Below are positions 2,692-53,024 of a stretch of 64,000 bases of DNA, in pieces. The position numbers and the translations under genes are program-made. The notes below the pieces were generated by a model. That model was given only the letters and a program-made list of their open reading frames with translations, did no database searches and was not told the DNA's origin. The DNA is from Cyanidioschyzon merolae. Its lineage: Eukaryota. Within the stretch, counting starts at the first letter, position 1. Each line of letters begins with the position of its first letter. The stretch is from assembly GCA_000091205.1 (NCBI GenBank), contig AP006489.2; one strand, 5' to 3'.

Positions 2692-2752
2692 TTGAAGCGT
2701 CTAGGTAACGCTAGTCACCTAAACTTCCAGCGATCCTGCCAAGAACGTCGGT

Positions 2753-6615: not shown

Positions 6616-9600
6616 GAGGCCTTCGCCCCCGCGGACCGCGACAGTGTTTGTGCTCCAGACCTGGTCAAGTGGTATTGATCGCCTGCGAGGTGTATTTGAC
6701 ACGAGCTGCCCCGAATAGCGGCCTGTAGGCATGGTGAAACAAGCGAACGTATTGGACCGCTACGCCGAGTCGTAACGTATAGAGGAGCTCGTTATGTGCT
6801 CGGCATCGAGAGTTCTGGAATACATGTATCATCATGATCTTTTTGACTTTGTTCGTCGTTGTCTCGCGGAGGTATTGGACAAAGGGAATGAATCCTGTCG
6901 ATAGGGGGAAACGCCGCGGAAAGAATTCATGCTGGGGCTGCTCGCTTGCGAAAAACTGGTTCACTCGCCCAAGTCAGTCATTCTGGCATTCAGCACGTAC
7001 TTGAACCGAGCTTCTCGTGGCGCTGATGCCGAACCTCTTGCACCCAAAACGGAACCTGTCGTTCTCTATTTAGACAAATGTCTGACTGGTTGTCCATACA
7101 TTCCCGTCCGTAATTTCTTTGTGAAAACCTCTCAAAGAAGCCACAGGACGCGACTTTTTCGTACTAAGGATACGAAAAGTGACGAAGAGGCACTGATGGA
7201 CATAGGGAGAAAACGTGCTTCTACGGGACTCCGTCACGCGTTGCACAGCACACGAACACTGTTGTACTGAAACGCAAACGCTTCCCACACAATGGACGAG
7301 TGTTCGTCGCCCTGGACGTTACGCGATTCGAGAAAAACGCTCGACCTGTATACGGTACTCAAAGAGGTTTAGAACGCTGTCCGTACAGAAGATGCAAGCG
7401 AGCATGACAACAATAAAAGTCCTAGCGGCTCTTCAATGGTGCAATCGCCTACATATCACCAGGCGGAGAGGATCAATCGACATCTCATTGTTCCTTGACG
7501 CGTGCTTCGTGGCTTCTCCTTCCTCGGTGCTGCTGTCCTACTCTCGGACAAGGTCGCCGTCCATCAAGTAAAAGCGGTCATGCGGCACCCGACATACGTT
7601 GGCGTTGAGCTGATCTTCGTACCAGCTTCTGCGTTCTGGTGCAATCCAGTCGAAAACAGCTTGTCTAGTGCGAAGCGCCGGTTTTCGCGCCCACGGATCA
7701 ATAGATTGGTCAGTTGCACCCACGACGCTGAAAGCTGCAGGATGCCACTGAGGATCGCGTAGCTTTCTAGTCGAGGAAGGCTCGCCTAGCACTCATCGCC
7801 TCGACGCACCTCGTCAAGCAAATGTGCGTAAGTTTCTCGGACACACGGCATCGAGCTGTCCTTTTTCCACTCGAATTTTCTGATGAAATTTCCCTGCGAC
7901 AGTACAACGGATATTCGTTAGAAAGCACGCAACTCGATCTGATGTAATGATCAGAGGTTTGGAGGCACACTTCCCAGCATACCTTCAGACGTGGACGCGT
8001 CACGTTGTCAATTGAGGTAAACGATACAGCACAGGTGTGAAAAATTATTGAACAAGACTCAAAAAGCAAATCCATTTGCAGGTCAATGTCGAGCGATTCA
8101 TGAGGTCTGTCTCGTGAGCGTTGTACGCTCAACTCGCTGGTCCAAGAAACTGAAGACTACTTCAAGCGGATTCCTTAGGTGTCTATAGAGGCGAGTGGCG
8201 AGCTGGTGATGAAGCGCTCGAAATGGCAGCGAGTTCGGAAGAAAAGTCATTCCAACAGCGACAGTCGCTTCAGACCGTCCAAGCACATCCTAGTGTGCTC
8301 GGTGCCGGGCCGACGGACGTCACCTGCAGAGCATGGTTCAGACGTCATGCCTGCCTTGCTTGCATCCTGCGCTACTGCGTTTCCCAGAGGAGAGCCATCC
8401 CGGGGGGAATCGGATTTCCTTCCAGCATCCGAGCGTCTTGGCCTGACCGAGCGTCCACTGGATATGGTCACCAGTTGTCGAGTCAAGACCCATGAGATCA
8501 CCGTTGACATTTGTTTGTAGTAGTGCATGGACTCCACAGTAGGTCATGGTAGGTCTCTGTGAGCAAGCATGAAGCATTCGAACAAGATCGTGATGAGTAT
8601 GGCCGTACATCGTTCATGGCTCCTGGGCTACCGCGAGGACCTGGAAAGAGGTTCGCATTGGCGGTCAGGATCGACGGAATATCCAACTGAATGCACTCTG
8701 TGAAGTATAGACCTGAGTTCAGCACCGACACTCATTCTCATCCGTCCTAAGTAGCTGGACGTACGTAGAGAGGTTTCGTGGCGAGCATGCGTTTCGAGTC
8801 CAAGAACATCGTTGCCGTCTTCGCAGCTCTGATTCAAGAGGATAGAGCCAACGACGTGCATAGAACGCCAATGATGCTGCTCAACTTCTCCAAGGCTCTC
8901 TCTGATCGAGATTCGAGTCTGATGGACGCAAGAAGCCACACCAGCTACTGCAGTGAATGCATTGTGACCATCTCGACGCCCTGAGTATCGTAACGGGCAG
9001 AGACGGGGGATGCGCTGTGCGCCTCGTTCAGAGCGTTCACGAGCATCCACAGAGCTCATACCGCAAAATTTTGGCGATAGTGGACGAAACCGTGTTGTCG
9101 TCGCCGACATTGTCGGTTGTGCGGAGGCAACAAGCGTGCATTCACCAATATCTTCAAAGAGCTGGAAAAACTGAAGCCCATAACTCGCGTCCTTGGGTTG
9201 CAGTCTACGGCGCCAGACATGCCGCTGTGCGCAAGGGCCGTACTCGTGCCTCTTCCGCCAGAGCGTACAACGAATTCAGGAATCGATTCTATACGATTTT
9301 CATCGATGATATCGTGATTCTATCCACGCATCACGAGCAAGCGTGCACAATGAAACAGGTGGAGAGGCAGCGCTTGCAACAGAGCCGGATGGATAACGTG
9401 GTGGTGTACCGTACGCTGACCGAATGCCAGATAGCGAGACGATCGAAAAAGAGCGGCTTGCTGGTATGTGATTCAACCAGAAAACACACGCGGACGCATT
9501 TCCTGTACCGAGACTTGACCACCACGATCAACCTTCGGAAACGTCTTGCGCTTCCACAGCATCTGGCGGCTTTTTTTCGACAAAGCTTTCAAGCGAATCG

Positions 9601-16530: not shown

Positions 16531-16949
16531 GTGTGTGCGATCGGCACCAGAAACTGGTATTGTGAAAGTGTGCCTGCGGTCAGTGGTAGAAGTAGCAGAA
16601 AACGACCCATTGATCACTCCAGGGAAAGCAAACGATACGATAGTAGACGCCGGGGGGGGGGGGTCTCTGTTTCTCAAAAGCTTGTTCTTTTTGTCCTGGT
16701 AACACGGGGCTCTGGTCACTAAAAAGCCCTAGTTCACGCACGGCTATCTTCCACCGAAATCGGAACTAGAGCGTTCCTGGAAAGTCACGACCCGTATGAA
16801 GCACGGACGTCGCTTTGCTTTTCCAGTTAATGAGACTCTCTTCGGACGAAACAGTCGTAGCGTCTATGGGTATTCGCGGAGCAGGGATCCCGTCGTAGGT
16901 ATACACGATCGTACTCGAAGAGAACGAGGGAATCATCATCTGTTCTAGG

Positions 16950-17350
16950 TGCAGTGGATTCATTTGGCAGGTCAGCTTTGGCTCGTAGAGAGGGTTCGTA
17001 CATCAGCACAAACCACTTTTTCGAAGACCTGAAGACTTCTCCCTGACGTCTGCCGACATGTTTCTATTGGAAAATTGTGGTATTTTACCGCTCTCTTTGC
17101 ATTCGAGCCTTTGCCGATTCTATCAGGGTAGAGCTGCTTTTCAATCCTGCGTACGCTTCGTGGTTGAATCCCGTTGAAGGAGTCGTTTCTATCGTGAAAC
17201 GCCATGGTCGCTGCACTGGGCGAATTGATGAAGCGTTCAGCATACGACGACACACGGGCGCACATCTCGACTTTCTTCCGCAAGTCCTTCTCGCCTCGCG
17301 AAGGTCCGAACCTGCGGCTTGCAACAGGTCCGTTCATTCGACGAAATAAA
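16950..17350 (+). mobile_element. Tc1/mariner (IS630-like DDE) transposase remnant
   Basis: ORF 17077..17349 reads ...AFADSIRVELLFNPAYASWLNPVEGVVSIVKR, matching the C-terminal signature of DDE_3 transposases (H-x-A...L-x-F-PPYSPDLNPIE-x-W). An upstream LLENCGILP is a possible frameshifted QxDNAxxH remnant. Confidence 0.45.
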
Positions 17351-17510
17351 GAATCCCATGGAGCGGTATGTGCACGCAAGTCGAGGATCCTGAAGCGCTG
17401 TTACCGCCGGATGCCGAAAGAAAACGACAAAATCCTCTTCTCGCCGACCATGGAGCGAAGCAGACCAAATGACGAAAAAGAAGAAGAACGGTTGAGATAG
17501 GCCAGAAAAC

Positions 17511-17807
17511 GTGTCCGCCCGACGGGACGATCACGAGACTTTGGTGACACCGAGGACACGAGTTGAACGAAGCCCTGCATTGGCGCGTACCACCAGAGGC
17601 AGTTCACGCGAGACGTTCACGAACCGAGGCGTTAACGCCACCATTAATATCAGACGTTGTGCGGTGCGGAATACGAGACCTGAGAAGTTTAGGCGATCTA
17701 ACTTTGTGGAGCAGCCTCTCAGGGTCGAAGTGTGCATGGAGAAGCTGAAGCCGATAGCACGCGCCCCGTCGAAAAAGGCTGAGAGACGTCTCCACATCAG
17801 GGGTTAG
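17511..17807 (+). mobile_element. TnpB/Fanzor-like C-terminal fragment
   Basis: ...TFTNRGVNATINIRRCAVRNTRPEKFRRSNFVEQPLRVEVCMEKLKPIARAPSKKAERRL aligns with 51624..51887 (MEFMNLDFNAAINIRRSAILKTGPAELTRANFVGQPVKVEFYKEQPKPISLEQSKKARRRL) and with 31676..31308 on the minus strand. Confidence 0.5.
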
Positions 17808-26916: not shown

Positions 26917-28701
26917 TGTTCCCCTACAGACTACACCGCCAGGGCCTGCGGCAACAAACGCGCTGTAGAGGCAGCGCGTTTCTCCACGGCGATATGCGAT
27001 ATTTGCCGCCGCGTCCACGCACTGCACCATTGCGTACCGGGAGGCGATGCCTCGAACTGACTGTGCTCGACGAGTGTGCGGTTGATATCGGTTGCTGGAG
27101 GCACAAATTTCGAATTATCGGGCGACAGGTCCACGATCCTACTCCAGGCAAGTGCGACTCGGCTTGTCCGCCTGGTCATTGTGGCCCAGAGCGCGAGCGA
27201 GCGCCACCTTCCGGCGCCTGTGAGGCTGCCTCGGCCCCGGTACCACGACGTATGCAAGTTCCCGAAACGAGGTCCTCTATGCTACTGGTTGTCCACGTGA
27301 TCAGTCGGTGCCTGTGACTGAGCCTTCTCGATGACATTCGCTCTCGTCGATCATATTTTCGTGCTTCGCAGCGGCGCGTGCAGGCGAACGCTGCGATCCG
27401 GTGCGGCAACCTTGCAAGCGCGAATGCCCTGCTCTTGATAATTCGATGCTTTGCACGCGCAAACGGGTTTGAGTCACAACTATCTGCATAGGATCATGAA
27501 AGACGAACCGGTGCAATGAGGCATTCAGGAACGGGCGCACGGGCCTCGGAGTACCGGCTCTGAGCGGGCGATGTCGACGAGCGCGTCGTCAATACGCGAT
27601 TGCGACCAACTTGGGGCCGCAGCAAGCATCAGCGGCCTCTCTGGCAACGCATCGACAACGAGACGAGAGACTGCTCACGTTAGACGTGCAACCTGATTCC
27701 ATCGAGGCCATGGGAATCGCCAGACTCGATACAGGGTTGCGGGGCACGGCCGTCGATTCGCCTGCAACGACATACGACGCTGTTGCTGTTGCCCGGGACC
27801 ATGCCATCTTCAGAGCGAGCGATCGACTTTGAGCGGGGCCCTCACATCCGACCAGCGAACAACGTGTCAAACTCTTGGACTGGAACGCTCGTTCTTCGTA
27901 GCAGGTAGAGCGAAGCGCGATGATAACCCATCTCTAACCATAAAGTACCCTGCTCGCGTGCACGTCGTTGTCGCTTTCCTCGATGGCTTCCCGAACGCAA
28001 CACGCAAGCGTCTTGCAGCATGCATCTCCGTAGAACGTCGCTATGTCGCGAACCGACACGCACAAGGGTATAGGAAAGCTGTTTAGCCGCTGTGCTGCAT
28101 CTGTTCCAGCGGTTTGAGCGCTACGGCGGACGCTCCAAGCACGAACTCGGCGCACGATAGAACGTACAAGACGACCAGTGCATCTGGATGGGAGTATCAG
28201 CAATGCAGCTTGGAGGCAGGGTGCAACAACATCATGGACGCTTTCCCGAAAGCCTATTCCCATCCGAATCGCACTCTGGAGTCCGTGATCGAAGGCAACG
28301 TTTTGCGATCGGACGCGCAGATCCTCAATCGCCGCGCATGCATGCTCGTGTTGCCATGCCGCGCAAGTGCATTGCGCTGGGGCGGCGAGGCGCGCTTCTG
28401 TAACTGTGGCACATTTGTCTAATACAGGCGACGCGCCCCCGCAGCAGCCGCAGCGACTGCATATCGGGTCGAGCGGGCGTGCAGGCATACGCCACGAACG
28501 CTGGCGCATGCTCGCGTGACTGCGGGCATTTTTCAAGGTCGACTGTCGGAACGTACCGTAGTGGAGCTGCACACGGGCGTACCTCTCACTTGTTTGAGTT
28601 AACTGTTTGAAAACATAGCGCGTAATTGATCAGAGAGGGGTTCGGAGAGAAAGAGGGGTGAAACGCTGTCCTGGGCGCTGAATTATTCGCAGCACGGACG
28701 A

Positions 28702-29694
28702 ATGAGCTTCGTAACAACTGGGCCCGGGGGCTTGCACGAACTCGTGCTACGCCGCGTTCGCGACCTGGGGAACGAAGCCACCATTCGTCGGGTTATTGAG
28801 GCGACAACCTCGGGAAAAGCGAATGACTATGCGCCTTACGCTCCTGAAGGGTCGAAAACGAGCGGTACGCTGCGGCTATTGCTCGCCGCGATTTGGAAGA
28901 GCTATCTGCGCAAGCTGCAGACCGACCCGGTGGTGACCAAGTCCATCTCTGCGGCGATAATCTCACTAGTATCTGACTTGCTCGCCTCTTCCCTTTCGGG
29001 TTCGAAACTTAGCTCGCGTTCGCTTCTGAACCAGTTCAGTATAGGCTTGGCTATTCGTGGCCCCATTGTACACTACTTCCATCAGTTTCTGGACCGTGTG
29101 GTGTTTGCGCGTGTCACCAACCAGACCCAAATCGCAGTGGTCATCGCAAAGGTCATTATCGATCAGTTCATTTTCTCGCCACCGTACAACGCGCTTTATT
29201 TCCTTATCATTGGACTGCTGGAGGATCGCTCGCTCGCCGAGATCGGCCGCAAGATTCGTCGCGAGCTCTGGGGCGTGATGAAAACGAACTGGATTGTCTG
29301 GACACCTGCGAACATCATTTCGTACTACGCCATCCCGTTGGAACTGCGGGTGTTATGGGGTAATTTGGTGGGTATTATTTGGACCGCTATATTGATTTCG
29401 AAAGTGCGCCGAGGAGGTGGGAGCAGTTCTACCAGTAACCAGAACAGCGGCGGTAGTGGCAGCGGCGACATGTCCGCGAACTCGAGCGGTCACGCTCGTA
29501 TCGGATCGTCGGAGCAACCCAATGATCAGAGCGGAACGCGTACCTACGCAAATGCTGCTGCAACGAGATCGAGTGTAGGCCTCAGGGCTGGCGACGCATC
29601 AGCAGCATCGGGCAAACATCGTCAACCTATTGCCGAGAACACGAACGATGTTGAGGAATCAGAACACCTGAATGACCATAATAAGTTTGAATAG
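28702..29694 (+). CDS. Mpv17/PMP22-family membrane protein with low-complexity C-terminal extension
   Basis: AAIWKSYLRKLQTDPVVTKSISAAIISLVSDLLAS...GPIVHYFHQFLDRV...WTPANIISYYAIPLELRVLWGNLVGIIWTAIL matches the Mpv17/PMP22 core. It is followed by a Ser/Gly/Asn-rich tail. Confidence 0.65.
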   Translation: MSFVTTGPGGLHELVLRRVRDLGNEATIRRVIEATTSGKANDYAPYAPEGSKTSGTLRLLLAAIWKSYLRKLQTDPVVTKSISAAIISLVSDLLASSLSGSKLSSRSLLNQFSIGLAIRGPIVHYFHQFLDRVVFARVTNQTQIAVVIAKVIIDQFIFSPPYNALYFLIIGLLEDRSLAEIGRKIRRELWGVMKTNWIVWTPANIISYYAIPLELRVLWGNLVGIIWTAILISKVRRGGGSSSTSNQNSGGSGSGDMSANSSGHARIGSSEQPNDQSGTRTYANAAATRSSVGLRAGDASAASGKHRQPIAENTNDVEESEHLNDHNKFE

Positions 29695-29791
29695 GAGGGT
29701 ACCAGCATAAATCCGGTTTGCTCTTGTTTCTTTTGCGTTCAAAGAATGCCTGTCAGCAGACAGGGCTTTGGATGAGAGACGCGCAGTAACG

Positions 29792-29809
29792 ACTACTACT
29801 ACTGCTACC

Positions 29810-29850
<41 letters not shown>
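29792..29850. repeat. (ACT)n then (GCT)n trinucleotide array in the intergenic region after the Mpv17-like gene
   Basis: actactactactgctaccactactactactgctgctgctgctgctgctgctgctgc is visible directly. Confidence 0.9.
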
Positions 29851-29853
<3 letters not shown>

Positions 29854-30025
29854 CACAGATTTGGTCACGACTCGACTCGGACCTGCTAGGTTGTTCGTGG
29901 ATGCGGCATGGAAGCGGGCACATTGGCACTGGAGCAGTGCGCTGCAGCCTGAACCCGCAGGCTGTGACACCCGCACCAGCGTGAAATTGAACAGGCTCGC
30001 GTACTTAACTAGGGCATACATACCA

Positions 30026-31311
30026 AAGGCCGTTCTCTTGCGACTGTCAAAAATACCAGCCTTTGCGGAGCGGTTTTCGCGACTGTTTCCTTTTCTTCTC
30101 TCTTATCTCCGGATTTCTATACGATGGTCTCTCGTTTCACCCCAGCTCTGATGTCAGCTGTTGAAGGAAGCGGATGGCAGTGCTCAAATCTCGATCTCAC
30201 TGATTCCGGCGGTTTTCGACGACTCCTATGCCCGGGCATAAGTTGCCCGTGATGCTTCCCGTGCCATTTTCATCTGCTTGGTTTACAGACCGGGTGCGCA
30301 TGTCAGAGCGATGACAAGCCCTATGGTGGTCAAGTGTTCCCGTGTGTCCACCGAGCCTCCGTCTTGTAAATTCGCTCTGTGACTCGTACAGGCTTGCTTC
30401 ATCGCTCGGCATGTGTCCAGGTGAGGTGTATCGGACGCTCATCTGGATACCCGACTCCGTCTCCGCCTCCATCTTCGCAAACCGAGGCACTCTCCTACGA
30501 TCACGCGCTTCTTCTGAGCGATCCTCTAGGCGAGTTTCCTGCCCGCTGCACGAGCCAGTGTGCGCTGCCTCATTTGATATACGACTTGTGGACCGTGATG
30601 GTGTACGTGATGAAACAAGTACCGGAAAGAATATCCAAGTTGGAGACCAAGTCGCGAAATTCGGATCCGTCTACCCACTTGCCATGCAAACCAGTGACGC
30701 ATTTTCCAGAGGAAGGGATCGCTGCGAAGCCTGCAGTCCCAGCTCGAGACACTTGACGATGCAAACACATGAGACGGGAGCTTCTTGGAACACATCCTTT
30801 GACAAGGTTCCAGCTGGTTCCGCATCTGGTTTCATCGGTGGCTGCAAAGAATGGAGCACTGGTGTTTCAAGCGGAATCGCTCATTTGAGGTGAGAATCTC
30901 AGTGAGGGTTCGGTATGGGTTTTTTTTTCGGAGGACCGGTCAAGGACTGACGTCGCATCGTTTCCTTTTTTCTATGGACCTATCAGCGCGGAGCGGAACG
31001 TCCACGAGTTACCGTGAATGAGAAAACACCAAAGACTCGAAGCATGTGTGATTTGAGCGTGCCTCACACACGAGAAGCGGACGATTATGGTATGTAACGA
31101 GTCATTGTTCGAGGACGTCCGGAATCATGGTTATTTCGCTGATATCATGAATGCCGGGGACAACGCGTCCATAGAGCGATTCCGACGAGCCGAGCGAGAT
31201 TCCCAAAAGCACCAAAGAATCCGTAGGGCTTTATTCCAGCACTTTGAATAACAAGGCTGTGCATCGAAACAATTTTCGAAAAGCGTTGTATACGAGAAAC
31301 AGTGCGACTAG
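30026..31311 (+). mobile_element. Non-autonomous TnpB/Fanzor-like element copy A (1.29 kb; RuvC-II-like core to degenerate RuvC-III plus conserved 3' tail and hairpin box)
   Basis: ORF 30342..30893 reads ...RRVSCPLHEPVCAASFDIRLVDRDGVRDETSTGKNIQVGDQVAKFG...TSDAFSRGRDRCEACS...GVSSGIAHLR-stop. It is about 98% identical at the nucleotide level over its whole length to 59686..60972. The unit begins tctcttgcgactgtcaaaaatacc and ends gtgcgactagttcag. Confidence 0.6.
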
Positions 31312-31676
31312 TTCAGTGTTACATTATTATCCGATACCAGTGTAGACTTCAAAGAAGCGTTTGTGATGTGTGATCTGTGAAACCGAAAAATGTCCTTTCC
31401 CATCGAGGGTAAATGTAGATCCACTTGCAGACGCGAGCCAGCCTTTTCTGACATGCCGACTGCTATCGGTTTAGGTTTCTCCTTGCAGACTTCGAGTATT
31501 AGACGCTGCACCATGGAGTTCGCTTGCGTCATCTCCTCGGATCTCGTCTTCAGCGTCACACAGTTTCTGGTATTCTCAGCAGCGTTGAAGTTTCGATTCA
31601 CGAACTCCATGTATTTCTCGCTGCTGCTCGTACTCATCAATGGAAGCATTCCCCGAACTTTTGCCCTCCGAGCCAC
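31308..31676 (-). mobile_element. TnpB/Fanzor-like C-terminal fragment (minus strand), abutting copy A
   Basis: MARRAKVRGMLPLMSTSSSEKYMEFVNRNFNAAENTRNC...QANSMVQRLILEVCKEKPKPIAVGMSEKAGSRLQV is colinear and roughly half identical to 51624..51887 (MEWRAKVPGLLALVSTSGGKKRMEFMNLDFNAAINIRRS...). Confidence 0.5.
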
Positions 31677-32095
31677 TTGCGTCTTGTCATTGTCCCGTGG
31701 GGCGAAGAGCTTTGCTCGCCCAGCGCCCGCTTCTTCTTCTTCTTCTTCGTTACTCGGCTATCTTCGCTCGACGGTCGAAGAGAAGGGCATGTATTCCCTT
31801 TGTTTCTGGCCTCCTGGATCCTCGCTTTCCATGTCGACACCTTTCCCTTGGATTTTTATTTCTTCAAATGAATGCACTTTGAATGTTTCTACTATAAAAG
31901 GCTAAAAAGCATTTGATGCCACGCACCTGGGCATGGAGCACAACTGAGCTGAAAGACCACAGCGAAGCAGCATCATCCTCCAGGCTGCTGGAACGCCGCT
32001 CTAGCCTTCAACACCTCATCTTCCTAGACGCTGCTTTTGCGGCAACCGCGGCTGCCGCATGACCTAACCATAGCTCATGTTCACTACCTCTCCGA

Positions 32096-33493
32096 ATGCC
32101 GAAGAATGGTCTCTCTTTAGGGAAAGTAGAAGCGGTTGCTGCTAGTCTGGACGTTCCCGAGGGCTACCACTGGCCGCACGAGGCCTTCCGTTCCCTCGAC
32201 GTTTTAACTCGGTGCCCGATCTGTGGGGAACACTTCCGCGCGCCTGTGCTGCTTGAGTGTGGCCACAGTTTCTGCAGCGAATGCATTCGTCGTGCGCTTG
32301 TTTATCGAAGCGAGTGCCCGCAGTGTCGAGCGCCCGCCAGTGCAGGGCAACTTCGTCGAAACCGTTTGGTTCAGGACGTTACAACCGCGTGGCAACAAGC
32401 ACGCGAATGCGTGCTAACCCGCTTTTCACCACAAGAGCACGCTGGGAATACGGAATGCCGGAGCTCGAAATTGGAAGCTTCGACTGAGAGCGGCCTCACG
32501 GTTCGAGAAAGAACCGAAGCAGCTTGCCCGGTGCGAGCGGCAGCGCTGACCGCACAAGTTGCGACTAGAGGTCGCGCTCGGAGCGCTCCTGTCCCGCCAG
32601 ACGAGCATACCGCAGCGGTATCAGCTGTTTGGACAGACAGACAACACCAGAATTGGGATGAAGCGGGTGTCTGTTGTGGAAATTGCGAGGAGTCGGCTTC
32701 CTCTGCAGTGTCAATGTCGAAGCGCACCGAACCCAGTCATCGATTCGAAAGAAGCGCTGAACGGGCGGGAGCCCAGCCTCCGAACGGAGGACTGAGCGGC
32801 ATTGCGGCTGTACCGCAGCCGCTTCCAGTGTTTCAGAAAACAGACGACATCTACGCGGAGGATTGGTCGGAGGCTGCTCCAACTCGGACGCCCGCCGCGT
32901 TGCCTGGTGAAGCTGCACGGGCAATGGAGCCGCGCCCACGAAACGATGCAGAGTCGACGGCGACAAGCGGTCACGCGTCGTTCACTCGACGGGCCTCGTG
33001 CGAGAGGATCCAGCAAAGAGACCATACCAAGTATGTCGAGTGCCCCATTTGCAATCGTGCATACCCGCCGGCTTTTATCCAGGTCCACGTGAATGAATGC
33101 CTGGATCAACTGGATGCCGTAGAGGCGAGCGGCTTTCCGGAAGCCGGATCTCGGGCTTTGGCCAAAGCCACCAACACGCTCGAAGACGAATATCCGATGC
33201 GGAAGATTCCCGAGGTTTGGTACGACGGCCTGACTGAACGTCGTCTCCGGGAAATGATTCGGGCGCTCGGCATGAAAGCTCCACCAGCGTGGCTCCGGAA
33301 TCGTCGTGGCCTCATTTACCTGCACCGCGAGTACGTCATTCGACATAATGCGGAGTGCGATGTGGAGCCGGTGACCGCGCGCAAACAGCGACGTAACATC
33401 TGCAGAGAGGTCGAGGAACTCGCCTGGTTCCAGATCGAGTCTGCGAGGCGACCCACACGACCAGAGGCAGCGCGTTCTTCGAATGCAACCTGA
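32096..33493 (+). CDS. RAD18: RAD18-type E3 ubiquitin ligase (RING + UBZ4 zinc finger + SAP domain)
   Basis: RING: CPICGEHFRAPVLLECGHSFCSECIRRALVYRSECPQCRAP. UBZ4: VECPICNRAYPPAFIQVHVNECLD. SAP: LTERRLREMIRALGMKAPPAWLRNRRGLIYLHREYVIRHNAECD (compare human QEFVHMYNAQCD). The domain order matches RAD18. Confidence 0.85.
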   Translation: MPKNGLSLGKVEAVAASLDVPEGYHWPHEAFRSLDVLTRCPICGEHFRAPVLLECGHSFCSECIRRALVYRSECPQCRAPASAGQLRRNRLVQDVTTAWQQARECVLTRFSPQEHAGNTECRSSKLEASTESGLTVRERTEAACPVRAAALTAQVATRGRARSAPVPPDEHTAAVSAVWTDRQHQNWDEAGVCCGNCEESASSAVSMSKRTEPSHRFERSAERAGAQPPNGGLSGIAAVPQPLPVFQKTDDIYAEDWSEAAPTRTPAALPGEAARAMEPRPRNDAESTATSGHASFTRRASCERIQQRDHTKYVECPICNRAYPPAFIQVHVNECLDQLDAVEASGFPEAGSRALAKATNTLEDEYPMRKIPEVWYDGLTERRLREMIRALGMKAPPAWLRNRRGLIYLHREYVIRHNAECDVEPVTARKQRRNICREVEELAWFQIESARRPTRPEAARSSNAT

Positions 33494-45922: not shown

Positions 45923-48718
45923 TCAGACGGACTCTCCGCGCCGATGCCGCGAAGCATTCGCCGTCGAGTCCTCGGTCAGATGTTGCGCTTGCAGTCGAGC
46001 CTCGAGCCTTGAGAGCTCGCGCTTCTCCAAGAGGTCCCTGATCACTGCAGCGAGCTCAAAATCCAACTGTGCAGCAGCTTCATGCATGTGCGTACGAAGC
46101 TGCTCATCGTCCAAGGCGCCAAGACCCGCCGGTAACCTGCCCCCGAGGCCCATTTTCGAACTGGTCTTCTCTCGTTTCAGATAGGGTTCATGCTTCGCAA
46201 GAATCGAACGCGGCTCCATTCCATATTTCGCGTTGTAGGCTGCTTGTATAGCTCGCCGTCTTTCGGTTTCTGAGATCGCTCGCTGCATCGAGTCCGTCAG
46301 CGTATCCGCGTAGAGCGTCACGGTGCCGGCTACGTGGCGCGCCGCACGCCCCATTGTCTGAATGAGTGCGGTCTCGCTTCGGAGGAATCCTTCCTTGTCC
46401 GCGTCGAGAATGGCCACCAGACTGACCTGAGGGAGGTCAAGGCCTTCCCGAAGAAGGTTCACGCCGACGATCACGTCACAGCTTTCTGTGCCAAGGGCTG
46501 AGAGCACCTCTACCCGCTCCAGAGCGTTCAGTTCGGAATGCAAGTAGCTGACCCTGAAGCGCTGTTCGCGGAGGTAACGGCAGAGTTCTTCAGCCATTCT
46601 CTTCGTTAGGGTGGTAATCAGGGCTTTCTCTCCTCGCTGTACTCTTTGGCGAAGCGAAGCGGCTAGGTGTTCGATCTGGCCCCGGGTAGGGTGCACCTGA
46701 ATCCGCGGATCAAGCACATGCGTCGGGCGAATCAACAACTCCGCCAGGGCACCGTCGGCGAGACACAGTTCGAATGGGCCCGGTGTAGCTGAAACAAACA
46801 CGCAGCGATGGACCTTGGTCCAGAACTCTGACTCACGAAGCGGTCGATTCTCCAGAGCGCTCGGTAGACGAAAACCGTAACGTACCAGGTTTTCCTTGCG
46901 TGCGCGATCTCCATGGTACATACCCCGTATCTGCGGAACCATAACATGGCTCTCATCGATGATGAGTAACCATTCGGGGGGAAAGTAGTCCAGTAGGCAC
47001 TCGGGTGGTACATCTGGTGCCCTGCCCGAGAGGTGCATGGCATAGTTCTCGATTCCCGAACAGTAGCCGTGTTCGCGCAACAGCTCAAGGTCCTGGGTCG
47101 TGCGTCGCTCCAGACGCTCGGCCGCGTGGTGCTGCCCTCGCTCGCGGAGCCGTTTGCAGCGGCTTTGTAGTTCAGCGGCGATAGCCTGGAGCGCCCGCTC
47201 GCGCTCCTCCTTGGGCGTCACGAAGTGCCGAGCGGGATACAAGGTCACATGGGAGCTGTATTCCACATCCGCTCCCGTTTCGCGATCCACATACCTGAGT
47301 TCGACAATTTGATGATCCTGTACATCGATGCGGAGTAATAGCTCCCGCTCATCCCACGACGGTAGCGAAACCTCCACCGCCGTATCCCTGATCCGAAACG
47401 TACCCGGATCGCGGGGATCGGCTCTGCGTTCGTAGAGCATGGCCTCCAGTTGTAAAACGATCTCGTCGAGACTGCAGACATCACCGAGTTTAAGGCTTGT
47501 CGCTGCTCGAAGGTACGTTGACGGCATGCCGAGGCCGTAGATGCACGATACTGACGAGACGATGATCACATCGGGGCGCTCGAACAGGGCGCGCGTGGCA
47601 GCATGGCGATAACGATCAATGTCCTTATTGATGCTTGCCGACTTTTCGATGTACGTGTCTGTGGCACTGTTGTAGGCCTCTGGCAGGTAAAAATCATAAT
47701 AGCTCACGAAAAACTCGACTGCATTCGATGGGAAGAATCCCCTCAGCTCACGATACAGTTGTGCTGCGAGCGTCTTGTTCGGTGCGAGTACCAGGGTTGG
47801 TCGTCCGTATTGCGCGATCACATTTGCGATAACGAAGGTTTTGCCAGTGCCCGTAGCGCCTTTAAGGACCTGGAATCGTTTCGAGGGCAAACGATCTACG
47901 AGGCACTGAATGGCTGCAGGTTGATCAGCGGCAGGTGTGTAGGGCGCGACCAGCTGGAAACGCTGATCAGGCAGTCGCGCAAAATGCTCTGCCAGTGTCT
48001 CCTGCTCTGCGCTTCTGCGAGGCGATATCGAAACGTCTGCGGGTATCGGTAGAATTTTGGTCAATGGAACAATTTGATCTGCGTCGTCGGAATAGCGGAA
48101 GATGTGCCAGCCGTGCTGTTCGAGGTGTTGTTGAGCGTCCGCGTCCAGTCGCCCGCGTCGAAGCAGCAGCGCCAGTTGTGTACAGAGTCGCCACATCACT
48201 GCATGCCGTGCAACAAGTCGCTCTGCGTCGGGTCTTTTCAGTGGCAGCTTGCGTTCTATGACAATGACCGCCATACTATCGTCCAAGTACAGTTTCATTG
48301 ATCGGGAGAAGCGAGCGTTTTTGGTGATCGCGTGCTCCGCACTCCCATTGCACACCTCTTGTACGAAGCGAACAAGTCGCTCAAATGGAGGCCGCTGCTC
48401 GGTCGCCACACGCGGATCCAAGGGACGCCCGTGTGCAGTTGCTGCAAGCACCGCTCGGCTCGCATCGTTCGTTGCGTTGCAGACGAGCGTCAGCGAAGGC
48501 CAGCGCCCGGCGCCGTTGGCGAGCAAGCGCATCACGACTGGGCCGTGGAACACCCCACCACCGATCCGCAAACGACACAAACATCCCGCGTTCCTCGCTA
48601 AACCTGACCTGCATAATCCTAAATTCCCTATGAGGAACATACACGCAAGCGCGTCAAAGCACAGACGAGAAGAGTTCAACACAGACACACACTCGACAGA
48701 GTTCACGCTGGTGCGCAA
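45923..48718 (-). CDS. uvrB: UvrB (bacterial-type excinuclease ABC subunit B) with 230-aa N-terminal extension
   Basis: The ORF is colinear with bacterial UvrB from about residue 230 to the end, with long identical blocks: VLKGATGTGKTFVIANVIAQYGRPTLVLAPNKTLAAQLYRELRGFFPSNAVEFFVSYYDFYLPEAY, TLTKRMAEELCRYL, LLREGLDLPQVSLVAILDADKEGFLRSETALIQTMGRAAR, and a C-terminal UVR domain (LDFELAAVIRDLLEKRE). Confidence 0.9.
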   Translation of the reverse strand: MRTSVNSVECVSVLNSSRLCFDALACMFLIGNLGLCRSGLARNAGCLCRLRIGGGVFHGPVVMRLLANGAGRWPSLTLVCNATNDASRAVLAATAHGRPLDPRVATEQRPPFERLVRFVQEVCNGSAEHAITKNARFSRSMKLYLDDSMAVIVIERKLPLKRPDAERLVARHAVMWRLCTQLALLLRRGRLDADAQQHLEQHGWHIFRYSDDADQIVPLTKILPIPADVSISPRRSAEQETLAEHFARLPDQRFQLVAPYTPAADQPAAIQCLVDRLPSKRFQVLKGATGTGKTFVIANVIAQYGRPTLVLAPNKTLAAQLYRELRGFFPSNAVEFFVSYYDFYLPEAYNSATDTYIEKSASINKDIDRYRHAATRALFERPDVIIVSSVSCIYGLGMPSTYLRAATSLKLGDVCSLDEIVLQLEAMLYERRADPRDPGTFRIRDTAVEVSLPSWDERELLLRIDVQDHQIVELRYVDRETGADVEYSSHVTLYPARHFVTPKEERERALQAIAAELQSRCKRLRERGQHHAAERLERRTTQDLELLREHGYCSGIENYAMHLSGRAPDVPPECLLDYFPPEWLLIIDESHVMVPQIRGMYHGDRARKENLVRYGFRLPSALENRPLRESEFWTKVHRCVFVSATPGPFELCLADGALAELLIRPTHVLDPRIQVHPTRGQIEHLAASLRQRVQRGEKALITTLTKRMAEELCRYLREQRFRVSYLHSELNALERVEVLSALGTESCDVIVGVNLLREGLDLPQVSLVAILDADKEGFLRSETALIQTMGRAARHVAGTVTLYADTLTDSMQRAISETERRRAIQAAYNAKYGMEPRSILAKHEPYLKREKTSSKMGLGGRLPAGLGALDDEQLRTHMHEAAAQLDFELAAVIRDLLEKRELSRLEARLQAQHLTEDSTANASRHRRGESV

Positions 48719-49704
48719 CTGTCATGTCCGCCTGCCAACGGATTACAGGAGCGCGCTCCTTTGACGGGCGATTTGCTTTGCGTTTTCTCTCGGCGATCAA
48801 AAGTTTACTTTGACCATGCATCCCAGATTGCGGGATGCGTATTGGCTTTCGGAAAAGCGTCCTTAGGGCTGCGCAACACTACCAAGTTCCATGACGTAGA
48901 CTTGCATTCGGATGTACTGGACGTTTAGTACGTTCTATCGTGTGCCGAGTGCCTGCATTACTGCACCAGCCGTATCGCATATGCCTCTGTTACGGATCCA
49001 GCACGGAGACGGAACGGCTTTGCCATAGAACAGAGGGCGTCGGCTCGAGGTATGATTCATTCAACATGGAATCGGGATTCATTAGCCTGCTGGGAGCGTG
49101 CAAGCTGCGCAGACACACATGCTGCCTGCGACAGCGCGAAGCGACATACGAGGCGGATACCACGCCGACCAGGGCGATGCCCAGACGCAGCCTGTCCGCT
49201 GGCAGTCCCAGATTACACTGCGTTCCGGATGAGCTGCTGACATTTCCCTACAGGACTCGCCACTCGCGAGGGCATCGTGCACTAGCCCGATAGACTCGTC
49301 CGGCTCGCGGAACTTTCTGCCTAGAAAGAAGAGTTTCGAGGATACGGAAAGCGTTTCCCCCTCCTAGCGTTCTTCGTAGTGGGGGCGGGAAATCTTTATC
49401 TCGTTGCTGGTGAATCTTGAGTCTCTGTTCTTTGCCCTGAATAGCGCGCTCGATACGTGCGCCTTTATATTTGGCAGGAATTGAACATGTCCTGCTTCTC
49501 ATCGTTGAAGAGAAGCGCAATCCTGATCATTATCGTGTTGCAGCAAGGTGCAATGTGGATTTGCATGAAAGTCGTCGCAAAGTATAGTTGTGTATCTCAA
49601 TTGGGTTTCAATCTTTACATTTGTGGATTCAAGTGCTTTTTCGCTGTGTATAACAAAAACGTTCAAAGTGCGTTCTCTTTTGCAAAAGGAAAGAAAGGAA
49701 AGTT

Positions 49705-51887
49705 ATGGAAGTAGAAGTGGAGGATCCTGCAGGCCTGGTGTCGGCGGCTGCCGCAGAGAACAAAAAACATTTCCGGCACCATAGGAACGGGAAAAGACGA
49801 AGAATCAACGGGAACGAGGGAGGGCGGACGTCAGACGCCGCACGAAAAACGACACTACGACGAGATGTTCGTGAAAGCTTTTCTTTCAAGCCGTATCGAG
49901 GATCCCTACAAGCAACCGTTGCAAGAGGTCATCAGAAACCCTGTCGAATCATATTCCAGGAGTGCTCAAATCTCCTGTTTAGGACTGATGCATATGACGA
50001 GGGAGATGTATCGCGGCGTGACGCGCATAGAAAGAGTCGAGGTTCCGGAGGAATTTTCTAACGAGACCTTCATCCGCCACTTGATGCTTGGCACGGGGGA
50101 AACCTCGAAGAGAAATGAGCGAGCGCATGACGTACAGGAAAATGACACCGAATTCCGCTTCAACGGTACTCGATACAAGTATGACGGGGACATTCACACC
50201 TACGGGGCGATCTAGTACCCCAGGATCCTGAGGAACCCCATGATCGTAAACTTCGACCGCATCATGATACGCTCCGTCTTTGCACTGTAACCGGGCCTCT
50301 CTCGCAAAGGGATATGGGCTATCGTCGATGGCATCACGAACGATAGTGACAATGAAGAGGAGACCGAATTCGCCGAAAAGAAGGCATCACCCGGGAGCAT
50401 GAATGAAGCTTCTGTGCTCCGTGCGGCTCTTCGAGAGCACCGTACGGGTTGGCGTTAGCCAATCCTGCAGCAAAGGTATCAGAGATGAAAAGAGATGCTA
50501 TCCCCTCATCCTGCGCTATTTCGTGTTCCTGAACCGAGAGCTCGAACGCAAGGCGGAGATGGAGCTGGATGTGGAAGCAAGTGAAAAGTCGGTGAAACGG
50601 AAGGCTGCGCTTCTGAAGAGGCGCTTCAACCTCGTTCTGGAATGCAAAAGCAAGTCGCGCTTTGTGGCTAGCGATTCCAGATTCCTTCGCTGCTCCAAGG
50701 AGATCTGTCCGAAATTCGATGTTCATAACAAGGAATTCACGGGAGAAAAACGGTGAGACTCATCGGAAGAATATCTTCGATTTCAAACGTCTCAAAACGA
50801 GCAAGAAAAAGGTATTCACGGTGACGATCGACAGCGATGGGGTATCCATATGTGTACATTATCGGCGGTTGAAGGCGGATCGTCCAATTGTGCCTTCGGC
50901 TTCGCCCGCGGCGAGGCACGAAGAAAACACGGAGGCGGGCCCTGGATCGTATAACCCCCAGAAGAACGACATCGTGGCAGGCGCAGACCCCGGGAACACG
51001 TATATCATAACCATCGCAGTGCCCAGGGGTGCGAAAGATGGTATTGCTGGCGGCTTGCGTCAGAAAGCCATGAGTCTTTTAAAGCACTCAAAAGCGAGAT
51101 ATTACCGAGAGTCTAGGATAATTCATGCGAGGAAAAAAGTGTGACGTAGAATGCAGCCGGGAAGGCGCACCTGGAGGCGATCAGCCAGGTGACGGGCCGC
51201 CGAGCGGACTCTGAAGCTTTTCAGGAATTCATGAAAACTCATGCTGCTCACTAGGAGGAGCTGTGGAGAGATTACGCAAAGCTCCGGTTGGCTCGTCAGC
51301 GTATGAATCTCTACTGTGGGAAGCAACATGCGTTCGCCAACTTTTTCAATGAGTTGAGCGCCCTGGAGGAGGACGAGAGTCAAACGCTCGTAGTAGCATA
51401 CGAAGCAGGGCGCTCGATGAATCAAAAACGGAGCATACCCGCTCCGTAAACCACAGCGTACAAGGAGTGTGCACAGTGTTTTGTCATAATACCGATAGAT
51501 GAGTTCCGAACGTCATATACGGACCATGAACGGGGGTATACACTTCACCGGGTCGAGATGGAAAAGTGCCAGAGGAGCCCTGTGAAGATATAGAAAAGTA
51601 AGGAGAGCTGACAGAAGAGCAAAATGGAATGGAGGGCGAAAGTTCCAGGGCTACTTGCACTGGTGAGTACAAGCGGTGGCAAGAAACGTATGGAGTTTAT
51701 GAATCTTGACTTTAACGCCGCTATCAATATCAGACGAAGTGCGATTCTGAAGACGGGACCTGCAGAGCTGACGAGAGCCAACTTTGTGGGGCAGCCAGTC
51801 AAAGTCGAGTTTTACAAGGAACAGCCGAAGCCGATATCACTCGAGCAGTCGAAAAAGGCTCGGAGGCGTCTACGCGTCGGTGTATAG
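49705..51887 (+). pseudogene. Fuller-length TnpB/Fanzor-like RuvC nuclease gene, frameshifted (at least 4 frame changes)
   Basis: On one strand, in canonical order: a basic NLS-like N-terminus (KKHFRHHRNGKRRRINGNEGGR, ORF 49705..); Ruv[21 protein letters not shown] (Asp codon at 50986; compare Cas12/TnpB GIDRGERNLIYITVI); a RuvC-II-like block ...EEDESQTLVVAYEAGRS (about 51370); a zinc-ribbon remnant KECAQCFVIIPIDEFRTSYT (about 51480..51516); and RuvC-III MEFMNLDFNAAINIRRS (Asp codon at 51708). The GC content is visibly lower than in flanking host genes. Confidence 0.55.
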
Positions 51888-53024
51888 ACATATACGCTCT
51901 GGGTCTCACGGAAGCAAATGCAACGATGCGCTGTCCATTGGCGATACGCTGCACGCGTTTCAGGCAACGAAGGTCGCTGCTGTGAGTCACGGCAGCATCG
52001 ATGCCCACGAGAAAGGCAGTTCGATGCAACAACCTCACACCACACAGGATCGTTCTCTGCGGACAAGGCGAATCGTTCACACTGCTGCTCGGTGCCGGAT
52101 TGGCTTCAGATGCCGGCGATGATCTCTCCTCGTTCATCAGCGTCGACAGCAATCCGAGTCGCCCCGAGTCCGGGCACTGAATCGATGCAACTGTGGCGCA
52201 ACCATGTCAGATACTGTGTCGCGTTAGCCGTGAAGCCCGAACATGCAGTCATGTATGTGATGGTCTGCATCCAGTGACTGCAGCACTGCATCGGGGCGCT
52301 TTCGGGGCGTGCACAGGTGCCTCTGGGTCGATGATCCTGGCGAGCGGCGAGACGTCCGCGAGCATCCTCGCAGCGAAACAATGGTGATAGATGCGTCATC
52401 CTCGCATGGCTGCGTCCTCGCGAATAGCGTCGAGCGCGCTTGCCATGAGGCTTACCAGCATCGACCGAACAGACCAAAATCCCCAGAGGAAGGTACGGTC
52501 AAGGGCCCACGGGAAGCATTGGTGGTAGAATGCGGGCTGATGATTGATTCCCTCGATGCCGATACGCATCGCACGCGGAGGAACTCCATATCAAATGAAA
52601 CGATCCAAGTTTTCGTCACGTGAGCGAAAAGTGCAACAGGCTCGCATCGTCGGGCATACACGCTCAAGTTTGCGTCGCTTCCTGGTGTCATGAACAACAG
52701 CGTTCGTATGCGTTTTCTGAGATTGCTTCTTTTTCCTCTCTCATATTTCCGGCTTCAAACTACGTCGGTCTCTATTGTCCATCCAGGCTCTGTTGCCAGC
52801 AGTCGAATGACGTTCTTAGCCGCGGAAACGTTCCGATTTCGCTGCTTGCCGCTGTTGTCGACGCATTTCAAGTAACGGCGGTCGTTGCGATCCATGGTTC
52901 GATGGCCAGTTTCATCTTCTCTCTACACAGCCTCGGAGCGCCTTTTGTGGCGGCCAAACTTGGCAGTGATCAGGCGTTCTCGAATGTCCGCTAAACCTCC
53001 TGCTCCTCGTACGGGCGCCGCTCT

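Follow-up and report, generated by a model that had tools for sequence, protein, structure and literature searches.

A dead Fanzor1-carrying transposon in Cyanidioschyzon merolae, assigned to the CMe-1A family by alignment

RNA-guided, TAM-dependent DNA cleavage is established for the Fanzor1 protein SpuFz1 and others (PMC10432273, PMC10530073), with D383, E541 and D606 as the catalytic residues of SpuFz1 (PMC10432273). Fanzors are defined by a DPG motif at RuvC-I (PMC10711439). They have lost the canonical glutamate of the RuvC-II strand (PMC10530073, PMC10711439), which is replaced by G or P (PMC10530073), leading to the concept of an alternative glutamate, Ealt (PMC10711439), set about 45 residues further on and directly ahead of the zinc-finger position (PMC10530073, PMC10711439). 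Structures have been solved for SpuFz1 (8GKH, 9CEU-9CEZ), PpFz1 (9CF0-3) and GtFz1 (9CER-T), and all of these proteins keep a CCCC zinc finger. ISDra2 TnpB and Cas12f share with Fanzor1 a homologous RuvC core and the logic of a guide RNA derived from the transposon end. A typical TnpB combines a D-hydrophobic-G motif, the canonical RuvC-II glutamate, a CCCC finger, a length of about 400 aa and a TnpA partner, none of which apply to the element described here.

Cyanidioschyzon merolae is among the listed hosts of Fanzor1 (PMC3627910), and rhodophyta also appear among the taxa in later Fanzor surveys (PMC10530073). The family concerned is CMe-1A, a 3,169-bp element with roughly 150 copies that each retain about 80% identity to the consensus (Bao & Jurka 2013, Mob DNA 4:12, PMC3627910). 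It was described as lacking terminal inverted repeats (TIRs) and its class was left 'unknown'; some individual copies still encode intact proteins, and the first ~635 bp of the 5′ region are 95% identical to a separate element, TE-N2_CMe (PMC3627910).

We analysed a 64,000-nucleotide stretch of C. merolae 10D chromosome 7, hereafter the window. Alignment leaves little doubt that positions 48791-51948 on the plus strand are an old, dead, near-full-length insertion of CMe-1A. Consensus positions 1-3169 align globally to this interval at 78.6% identity, and blastn pairs window 48799-51881 with consensus 9-3092 in one HSP of 3,104 columns and 79.5% identity (E = 0), far more than chance would give. 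The copy and the published consensus (3,169 bp) run colinearly, and tblastn with the published CMe-1 protein recovers all of its coding pieces; both reference sequences come from the supplements of PMC3627910 (Additional files 2 and 3). The consensus element shares the host and the 3.17-kb layout of the window copy: a non-coding 5′ region of about 900 bp is followed by a single 734-codon ORF without introns and then by a short 3′ tail. The window copy departs from it by 9 frameshifts, 7 stops, 35% amino acid replacements and a degraded 3′ terminus, with no family-level difference. The sequence-only reading had taken this locus for a frameshifted pseudogene of a Fanzor/TnpB-type RuvC nuclease with a mobile origin, and the colinearity with a transposon consensus, the disrupted frame and the Fanzor1 profile and fold described below agree with it on each count. 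Its 2.2-kb extent is correct for the coding part, but the element measures 3.16 kb and starts about 915 bp further upstream. Features of the window are collected in Table 1.

Table 1. Coordinates of the CMe-1A copy, its catalytic codons, related remnants and neighbouring ORFs in the window
Feature	Position	Strand	Basis or remark
Whole CMe-1A copy, full-length but decayed	48791..51948	+	Global alignment, blastn, 5′ boundary
Non-coding 5′ region of element	48791..49704	+	Aligns to consensus 1-905
Fanzor1 (CMe-1) pseudogene	49705..51887	+	9 frameshifting indels and 7 in-frame stops relative to consensus
RuvC-I Asp codon, D of GADPG (Fanzor DPG motif), kept	50986..50988	+	Aligns with SpuFz1 D383
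Site of lost canonical RuvC-II Glu	51402..51404	+	Gly in family (VVAYGAG); GAA (Glu) here by copy-specific mutation
Alternative (relocated) RuvC-II Glu codon, E of IDEFRTS, kept	51501..51503	+	Aligns with SpuFz1 E541
RuvC-III Asp codon, D of NLDFNAAINI, kept	51708..51710	+	Aligns with SpuFz1 D606
Degraded 3′ terminus	51888..51948	+	Last ~77 consensus positions align near-randomly
UvrB-like ORF, divergently oriented	45923-48718	-	Longest-ORF start 48718
Family fragment with an internal deletion that joins consensus 790-936 to 2828-2994	31416..31957	-	Similarity to consensus
Composite remnant: DDE_3 (Tc1/mariner-type) transposase fragment, then internally deleted, more diverged Fanzor1 C-terminus	16715..17800	+	
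Older composite remnant: DDE_3 fragments (6913-7690), then distant Fanzor1 remnant (7926-9589)	6913..9589	+	
Fragments of CMe-1A 5′ part	5934-6018 and 28049-28311	-	
RAD18-like ORF	32096-33493		

The 5′ boundary at 48791 is the same in 18 other copies. The 3′ boundary is uncertain and lies between 51881 and 51948, the last 60-70 nt being barely recognisable against the consensus. Neither a long ORF nor DDE_3 similarity was found in the non-coding 5′ region. A search of the element for TIRs returned no inverted repeat pairing both termini, and the sole pair touching the 5′ end has its partner within the CDS; SpuFz1 elements, in contrast, have 30-nt inverted repeats. By eye, the 5′ end (ACAAAACG) bears a weak 8-9-nt similarity to the reverse complement of the 3′ end (ACAAACG), which may be chance. 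As had been noted from the letters, GC content is lower than in the surroundings (element 0.515, window 0.555, adjacent UvrB-like ORF 0.574). No orthologous insertion was found among the fetched loci, which match the window locus at 76% identity at best.

The element begins only 73 bp upstream of the longest-ORF start of the UvrB-like gene. This position, with the element 5′ end abutting the upstream region of that ORF, is the sole point in favour of co-option of the dead element, for instance of its 5′ region as promoter or regulatory DNA for the UvrB-like ORF. We consider such co-option improbable, as drift at the neutral rate runs throughout the element, the 5′ region included (21.7% non-coding divergence).

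The coding part is broken along its whole length. Relative to the consensus, it carries frameshifting indels at 49753 (-1), 49808 (+5), 50448 (-1), 50491 (-10), 50754 (+1), 51135 (-1), 51581 (+2), 51621 (+1) and 51882 (+1), and in-frame stops at 49782, 50213, 50288, 51147, 51252, 51447 and 51599. In the consensus reading frame, the window agrees with the 734-aa CMe-1 protein at 65% of residues, counted across all 734 codons. Mismatches amount to 18.0, 18.4 and 21.6% at the three codon positions, compared with 21.7% in non-coding DNA (chi-square p = 0.17). These near-equal rates indicate the absence of purifying selection and therefore a long-dead pseudogene. Judged by this divergence, the coding part has drifted neutrally and is a pseudogene of a Fanzor1 family member, not a working member; the intact ORF of a Fanzor1 is gone. 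The frameshifts also bear on the N terminus, where the sequence-only reading had proposed an NLS-like stretch (KKHFRHHRNGKRRRI). This stretch lies out of the ancestral frame, following the 1-bp deletion at 49753, and the consensus reads GKKRKTVPSPEEQEKTKKQKRE, which is also basic.

The pattern of decay leaves hardly any room for a live gene, in which introns, programmed frameshifting or editing would remove the apparent frameshifts and stops and yield a functional Fanzor1. All three catalytic codons (50986, 51501 and 51708) are present and other CMe-1A copies do encode intact proteins (PMC3627910), but the lesions are spread across the whole CDS and substitutions have accumulated at one rate at all codon positions and in non-coding DNA. 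Furthermore, the conserved arginine of the RD motif has mutated, as have other residues that are invariant in the family, and the 3′ terminal region is lost.

Within the pseudogene, plus-strand ORF fragments in three frames carry the RuvC-I block (from 50980), DESQTLVVAYEAG, KECAQCF...IDEFRTS (51462-51515) and NLDFNAAINI (from 51702). At RuvC-I, the window copy reads GADPGNTY from position 50980. All 103 family members carry the catalytic aspartate (D421 of the intact relative P0103), and the D, P and G of the DPG motif are invariant or nearly so among these relatives. The assignments of GADPG to RuvC-I and of DFNAAINI to RuvC-III made from the letters are correct, both aspartates aligning with RuvC sites of SpuFz1, but the glutamate block had been misplaced. 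RuvC-II had been read in DESQTLVVAYEAG, where the E of YEAG is in fact a G-to-E mutation of the window copy; the equivalent residue in the family, G559, is invariant across the 103-sequence set. The working glutamate is instead the E of IDEFRTS (E592 in the family, likewise invariant), in the alternative position that Fanzors use. At RuvC-III, the family hardly varies at R657 and D658, and the conserved arginine preceding the aspartate has mutated to leucine in the window copy. The CMe-1 clade resembles the solved Fanzor1 proteins in its DPG motif, in a glutamate set in (D/E)E(F/Y)(R/K)T(S/T) and in the RD at RuvC-III.

The zinc finger sets the clade apart from the solved Fanzor1s. In an hhalign alignment, CMe-1 has H..L and L..V at the CxxC...CxxC positions. 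The CAQC motif of the window copy, earlier regarded as a zinc-ribbon remnant, is CARR in the consensus, and the true CxxC positions carry H..L and non-cysteine residues clade-wide. As read from these alignments, the loss of the zinc-finger cysteines is clade-wide, although profile and fold otherwise place the family in Fanzor1. The clade of 103 members keeps only one conserved cysteine, in RGLLWC.

Membership of the encoded protein family in Fanzor1 is solid and rests on sequence profiles, the predicted fold of an intact relative and the alignment of the D-E-D residues with the SpuFz1 active site. Comparison by hhalign with Fanzor1 from Chlamydomonas, Chlorella and Volvox gave a probability of 99.0% (E = 3.8e-18, 348 columns). 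Against the PDB, a 103-sequence profile recovered PpFz1 (2.3e-22), SpuFz1 (6.1e-17) and GtFz1 (4.7e-11) and nothing else significant; across this range (E = 2e-22 to 5e-11) identity to the solved proteins is 12-15% only. The depth of the profile mattered: an 8-sequence profile had no match in the PDB, so the link to solved Fanzor1 needed the 103-sequence profile, and when the stitched translation of the window copy served as a single query, neither a Pfam family nor a PDB chain was recovered. The profile relationship expected by the sequence-only reading is accordingly significant to Fanzor1 with the deep profile, but Pfam gives nothing for the window copy itself. At E <= 1e-3, the clade comprises 2,165 cluster representatives.

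A structural match to SpuFz1, a comparison that the sequence-only reading had suggested, was obtained with a relative and not with the window copy. The AlphaFold2 model of P0103, an intact relative about 40% identical to CMe-1-like proteins, has a pLDDT of 89.5 and a pTM of 0.88 and adopts the full-length Fanzor1 fold (WED, REC, RuvC and NUC). Its top seven Foldseek matches in the PDB are all Fanzor1 (SpuFz, PpFz and GtFz; E 1.4e-17 to 1.7e-16, TM 0.51-0.73), so that the solved structures and the CMe-1 clade have a common fold (E ~1e-17, TM up to 0.73). Matches to Cas12 and Fanzor2 are much weaker, with E = 1e-5 to 1e-3 for Cas12f and other Cas12 structures. A first model, built with 22 near-identical, pseudogene-like close relatives, reached a pLDDT of 36.6 and was discarded. 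A search of 80 related metagenomic loci turned up no intact ORF with an M start and at least 650 aa, the longest being 564 aa, and we therefore infer the activity, omega-RNA and TAM of CMe-1.

Pfam matches to the family are weak and limited to DUF8286 (PF26935), and the OrfB and TNB models stay under their cut-off scores (E = 0.03-0.2). Such coverage, with OrfB and TNB barely registering, speaks for a previously undescribed OMEGA/Fanzor-like family, a possibility that had been raised from the letters. It is very improbable, given DNA colinear with the published CMe-1A consensus and a protein that matches the published CMe-1 Fanzor1. The flagged locus is not new, since the family, the Fanzor1 protein that it encodes and how abundant it is in C. 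merolae had already been reported in 2013 (PMC3627910).

The same comparisons argue against a prokaryotic TnpB of the IS200/IS605 or IS607 type, acquired by recent horizontal transfer or present as bacterial contamination. TnpB and Fanzor are homologous, and the adjoining UvrB-like gene has a typically bacterial function. Nonetheless, the flanking genes match C. merolae nuclear genes exactly, and six window ORFs equal C. merolae 10D proteins exactly (e.g., BAM79627.1, CYME_CMG130C). The motif set is that of Fanzor (DPG and alternative glutamate) rather than D-hydrophobic-G with a canonical E, both structure and sequence match eukaryotic Fanzor1 best, well ahead of Cas12, Cas12f and Fanzor2, and no TnpA-like ORF lies nearby. 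A bacterial source is thus exceedingly unlikely, and a eukaryotic Fanzor1 family, CMe-1A, accounts for the locus.

We then considered the 3′ end as a candidate source of omega-RNA. Of 43 non-redundant family copies, 41 end in a stretch of ~32 nt that folds into a single hairpin with 7 bp or more (on average -10.1 kcal/mol, with a mean z of -2.3), present as two sequence variants. The equivalent 32 nt of the window copy reach only -4.6 kcal/mol without the family hairpin, and neither variant has a match near its 3′ end. With its ORF destroyed and its 3′ hairpin region lost, the window copy can perform none of the Fanzor1 activities. An Rfam search of 48500-52300 gave no match at E <= 1. RNAalifold found no consensus structure in a MAFFT alignment of the 3′ tails, because an indel shifts the register between two subfamilies. 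Two further candidates were set aside. An upstream hairpin (GCCGCCA...UGGCGGC) was dropped as evidence since covariation between its arms (5.21 pairs) hardly differed from a swapped-partner control (5.09 +/- 0.10 pairs), and a small AGAC/GUCU hairpin across the stop codon, picked out by visual inspection, is broken in variant copies with no compensation.

The family recurs across the window, and the 49705-51887 copy is its most complete member, as the sequence-only reading had recognised; the other fragments lie at 31416-31957 (-), 17378-17800 (+), 7926-9589 (+), 5934-6018 (-) and 28049-28311 (-). An ORF overlapping the first of these (31308-31676, minus strand) reads ...RGMLPLMSTSSSEKYMEFVNRNFNAAENTR... 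Two remnants are composite. In the first, tblastn with a DDE_3 protein (L001) as query matches 16903-17238 (E = 5e-8), Pfam DDE_3 matches the ORF at 17077-17349 (E = 5.2e-6), and CMe-1A consensus positions 916-969 and 2906-3091 correspond to window 17378-17431 and 17615-17800 (+). In the second and older one, Pfam DDE_3 matches the ORF at 7502-7762 (E = 1.5e-5), and the Fanzor1 remnant that follows (7926-9589, +) is 24-31% identical to CMe-1 in amino acid sequence.

Three of the four intact relatives examined (P0023, P0103 and P0110) lie directly downstream of a DDE_3/HTH_Tnp_Tc3 transposase gene in the same orientation. The transposase-then-Fanzor layout of the Tc1/mariner-borne Fanzor1 elements PUl-1 and PGv-1 (PMC3627910) therefore also occurs in these three relatives and in the two older window remnants. 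Unlike the Tc1/mariner-borne elements, the window copy and the CMe-1A consensus have no transposase, TIRs or defined TA duplication; DDE_3 similarity is absent from 48791-51948. It is possible that CMe-1A is a non-autonomous Tc1/mariner derivative.

By analogy with established Fanzor1 knowledge (PMC10432273, PMC10530073), the intact ancestral CMe-1A would have encoded a nuclear RNA-guided DNA endonuclease of about 734 aa. The RNA that it would bind, an omega-RNA, would be transcribed from the 3′ end and take in the terminal hairpin that is conserved in other copies. Directed by this guide, the enzyme would cut matching DNA beside a transposon-adjacent motif, which would help the element to persist or spread. 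Transposition of CMe-1A would probably have occurred in trans, perhaps through a Tc1/mariner-type DDE transposase. We tentatively propose that CMe-1A may be the transposase-less derivative of a Fanzor1-carrying Tc1/mariner-type element, in a clade of 2,165 representatives that lacks the CCCC finger but keeps the D-E-D residues, and that the omega-RNA scaffold and the TAM might be marked by the terminal 3′ hairpin together with a T-rich (TTTTC-like) motif immediately beyond the left end.

Fanzor1 has had an established biochemical role since 2023, and the present relic was correctly spotted from raw sequence by motif reading. The zinc-finger-less Fanzor1 clade, its DDE_3 neighbours and the right-end hairpin could interest miners of compact eukaryotic RNA-guided nucleases, in the intact relatives rather than the dead copy. 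For annotation of the C. merolae genome, the 3.2 kb of gene-free DNA with lower GC that lies upstream of the UvrB-like gene, together with several ORF fragments in the window, can be accounted for as transposon debris.

The flagged element is colinear with a published transposable element of C. merolae. Blastn of the CMe-1A consensus against the window gives a single HSP (48799-51881 = consensus 9-3092, 79.5% identity, 3,104 columns), and global alignment pairs window 48791-51948 with consensus 1-3169 at 78.6% identity, both the DNA and the protein consensus being taken from the supplement to Bao & Jurka 2013. Eighteen other copies share the 5′ end corresponding to window 48791. This colinearity and the shared 5′ end mark the segment as one copy of the already known CMe-1A. 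The 2013 paper named the Fanzor proteins and contains one C. merolae Fanzor1 family, CMe-1A, with ~150 copies that each share ~80% identity with a consensus 3,169 bp long, which codes for 734 aa; over its first 635 bp the family matches another repeat, TE-N2_CMe, at 95% identity, it lacks TIRs, its TSDs are not determinable and its class is given as unknown (PMC3627910). Our search for terminal inverted repeats in the window copy likewise found none. The sequence-only reading had described a 2.2-kb plus-strand coding stretch of mobile origin from a possibly undescribed family. The coding extent and mobile origin are correct; the element itself begins ~915 bp further upstream, and the family was published in 2013. 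In a word-indexed protein search, the stitched translation matched 22 JGI metagenome proteins (45-57% identity) and an intact 617-aa relative, P0023; PF26935 (DUF8286) was the sole precomputed Pfam family for these hits.

As that reading had noted, the motif pieces sit in different frames; on the plus strand, ORF fragments occupy all three. Measured against the consensus ORF (positions 906-3110 of the consensus), the copy carries nine frameshifting indels, two in-frame 3-bp deletions and seven in-frame stops, and 65% of residues equal those of CMe-1 when it is read in the consensus frame. Mismatch is almost even over the three codon positions (18.0, 18.4 and 21.6%; chi-square p = 0.17) and close to the non-coding value of 21.7%, which argues that essentially all of the divergence built up without selection on the protein. 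The final 60-70 nt are barely alignable to the consensus. The earlier call of a Fanzor/TnpB-type nuclease pseudogene was right, and profile and fold place its family in Fanzor1.

Positions of features in the window, and of the terminal hairpin in the CMe-1A consensus
Feature	Position	Strand	Remark
CMe-1A copy	48791-51948	+	
Coding part	49705-51887	+	fragments in order: MEVEVEDPAG..., ...FIRHLMLGTGETSKRNE..., ...LILRYFVFLNRELERKAEMEL...; later ...LVVAYEAG..., ...IDEFRTSYTDHE..., ...MEFMNLDFNAAINIRRSA...RRRLRVGV-stop
Frameshifting indels	49753 (-1), 49808 (+5), 50448 (-1), 50491 (-10), 50754 (+1), 51135 (-1), 51581 (+2), 51621 (+1), 51882 (+1)	+	
In-frame stops	49782, 50213, 50288, 51147, 51252, 51447, 51599	+	
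Catalytic codons	50986 (GAC), 51501 (GAG), 51708 (GAC)	+	
Zinc-finger-equivalent region	51504-51700	+	from family alignment A3
UvrB-like ORF, 931 aa	45923-48718	-	adjoins element's left end
DDE_3 remnant, then Fanzor remnant	6913-7690, 7926-9589	+	older, heavily decayed composite
DDE_3 remnant, then Fanzor remnant	16715-17238, 17378-17800	+	older, heavily decayed composite
Isolated consensus fragment	5934-6018	-	87% identity
Isolated consensus fragment	28049-28311	-	75% identity
Homopolymeric runs	15344-16228	-	
Homopolymeric runs	29659-30151	both	
Terminal hairpin	consensus 3135-3169 + ~12 nt		loci L003-L082, CMe-1A right ends

The stitched protein matched neither Pfam families nor PDB chains, a shallow profile search likewise gave no match, and intact relatives matched Cas12f1-like_TNB below threshold only; the deep family profile, by contrast, leads to Fanzor1 structures. 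An exhaustive profile search collected 2,165 cluster representatives (E <= 1e-3), typically 600-700 aa. Used as a PDB query, the alignment of 103 full-length members (A3) matched exactly three families, all Fanzor1, from Parasitella parasitica (9CF0, E = 2.3e-22), Spizellomyces punctatus (8GKH, E = 6.1e-17) and Guillardia theta (9CER, E = 4.7e-11). Comparison by hhalign with Chlamydomonas, Chlorella and Volvox Fanzor1 sequences from the 2013 supplement of Bao & Jurka gave a probability of 99.0% (E = 3.8e-18, 348 columns), pairing GADPG with GVDP-G, VVAYGAG with VVVGWGS, VDEFRTS with IDEYKTS and NRDFNAAINI with NRDVSAANVI. From the same 103 sequences, AlphaFold2 modelled P0103, an intact relative ~40% identical to CMe-1-like proteins and not the window copy itself, with mean pLDDT 89.5 and pTM 0.88. 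The model best matches solved Fanzor1: the top seven Foldseek hits in the PDB are Fanzor1 structures over the full length (E = 1.4e-17 to 1.7e-16, TM 0.51-0.73), followed by Cas12X, Cas12o, Cas12f and Fanzor2 at E of at least 1e-5.

Invariant or near-invariant columns of the family alignment comprise all three residues of DPG, the G of AYGAG, the glutamate of DEFRT and the RD pair of RDxNAA. Counted along the 8GKH alignment with a 394-residue tag offset, the family D, E and D align with D383, E541 and D606 of SpuFz1, which coordinate two magnesium ions (Saito et al., PMC10432273). In the published Fanzor signature, RuvC-I carries DPG, G or P stands in place of the canonical RuvC-II glutamate, and an alternative glutamate immediately precedes the zinc-finger site (PMC10530073, PMC10711439). 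The CMe-1 family agrees with this signature. All three catalytic codons are retained in the window copy, without functional meaning in so shattered an ORF. Some motif assignments made from this copy do not hold. The supposed RuvC-II glutamate of VVAYEAG is a copy-specific G-to-E mutation where Fanzors have a catalytically inert residue, the true glutamate being the E of IDEFRTS. The NLS-like KKHFRHHRNGKRRRI is read in a frame opened by the loss of 1 bp at 49753; the original N-terminus, GKKRKTVPSPEEQEKTKKQKREARRQRLQERR, is likewise basic. CAQC, taken as a zinc ribbon, reflects two substitutions in consensus CARR and lies upstream of the would-be zinc-finger site.

In CMe-1 the true CxxC...CxxC positions read H..L and L..V, and only one Cys is conserved across the 103-member clade, in RGLLWC. 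The zinc ribbon is thus absent clade-wide, beyond any degeneration of the window copy. Whereas solved Fanzor1 and TnpB have a CCCC zinc finger, the CMe-1 clade is missing it and keeps D-E-D invariant. Just upstream of RuvC-I (...KHEEKKEADPATQEVQENDFVV..., consensus ~2120-2196), a unit of ~25 aa is present two to four times, in tandem and in frame, in several metagenomic copies (proteins P0001, P0006 and P0013) and once in the window copy.

CMe-1A contains no transposase gene. A DDE_3/Tc3-HTH transposase gene lies immediately upstream, in the same orientation, in three of four intact relatives examined (P0023 on locus L001, P0103 on L083, P0110 on L086), and both older composites in the window show the same DDE_3-then-Fanzor1 arrangement. 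This hints at a Tc1/mariner-borne ancestry and suggests that CMe-1A may descend, as a non-autonomous form, from a Tc1/mariner-type (IS630-type) Fanzor1 element, a type described in other species by Bao & Jurka (PMC3627910). Many metagenomic copies start at consensus ~640-690, without the TE-N2_CMe-like first 635 bp, and others include that part (compare L003, L004 and L010 with L012, L019 and L082), so CMe-1A seems to combine two units. At L075, a CMe-1A right end is followed by a TE-N2-like left end ~55 nt further downstream. The two isolated fragments in the window match the consensus over its initial ~250 bp alone and are probably TE-N2_CMe copies, not Fanzor-carrying elements. P0109, an intact clade member (L084), has phycodnavirus-type genes around it (EsV_1_7_cys, DUF5755) and no DDE_3 gene beside it, consistent with the reported occurrence of Fanzors in large DNA viruses.

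Six long window ORFs exactly match C. merolae strain 10D proteins (e.g. BAM79627.1, BAM79637.1, BAM79640.1, CYME_CMG130C), all on one 584,452-bp record, which we take to be chromosome 7 on account of the CMG locus tags; the window thus belongs to the nuclear genome of this red alga, which is poor in introns. The lower GC ascribed to the flagged segment was borne out: the element has 0.515, the neighbouring ORF 0.574 and the window as a whole 0.555. The UvrB-like ORF resembles a bacterial-type excision repair helicase, here in a eukaryotic nuclear genome; it has a long N-terminal extension, its product is presumably organelle-targeted, and its longest-ORF start is only 73 bp away from where the CMe-1A copy begins. 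Poly-Thr/His and poly-Ala/Val/Thr runs at ORF edges stem from simple trinucleotide repeats and have no relation to the Fanzor element.

RNA signals were sought in 80 related metagenomic loci, apparently from environmental Cyanidioschyzon relatives, with copies 79-89% identical to the consensus. Of 43 non-redundant copies, 41 fold their last ~32 nt into a single hairpin with 7 or more base pairs (mean -10.1 kcal/mol, mean z -2.3 against shuffles). It comes as CGUUUUUC-UUUU-GAAAGGCG (17 copies) or CGUCGUUCGA-CUU-UCGAACGGCG (26 copies), the two stems being of the UUUUUC/GAAAGG and GUUCGA/UCGAAC types. This structure may be either an omega-RNA scaffold or a transposon-end recognition structure. 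A second, upstream hairpin failed the covariation control and was dropped. Likeness among copies runs ~10-12 nt past the published consensus end (TTTGTTGTTG-like). The ~10 nt outside left ends (window 48781-48790 and other loci) are T-/pyrimidine-rich in most copies, often ending TTTTC or TTTTT, and this flank of CMe-1A/TE-N2_CMe-like ends may reflect an insertion-site/target or TAM preference. Neither the terminal hairpin nor the left-flank features are preserved in the window copy, a dead member of an already known family and of little interest on its own. On the strength of its homology to SpuFz1 and the other Fanzors that have been tested, an intact CMe-1 would act in the nucleus as an RNA-guided DNA endonuclease, its omega-RNA being transcribed from the element's 3′ end.
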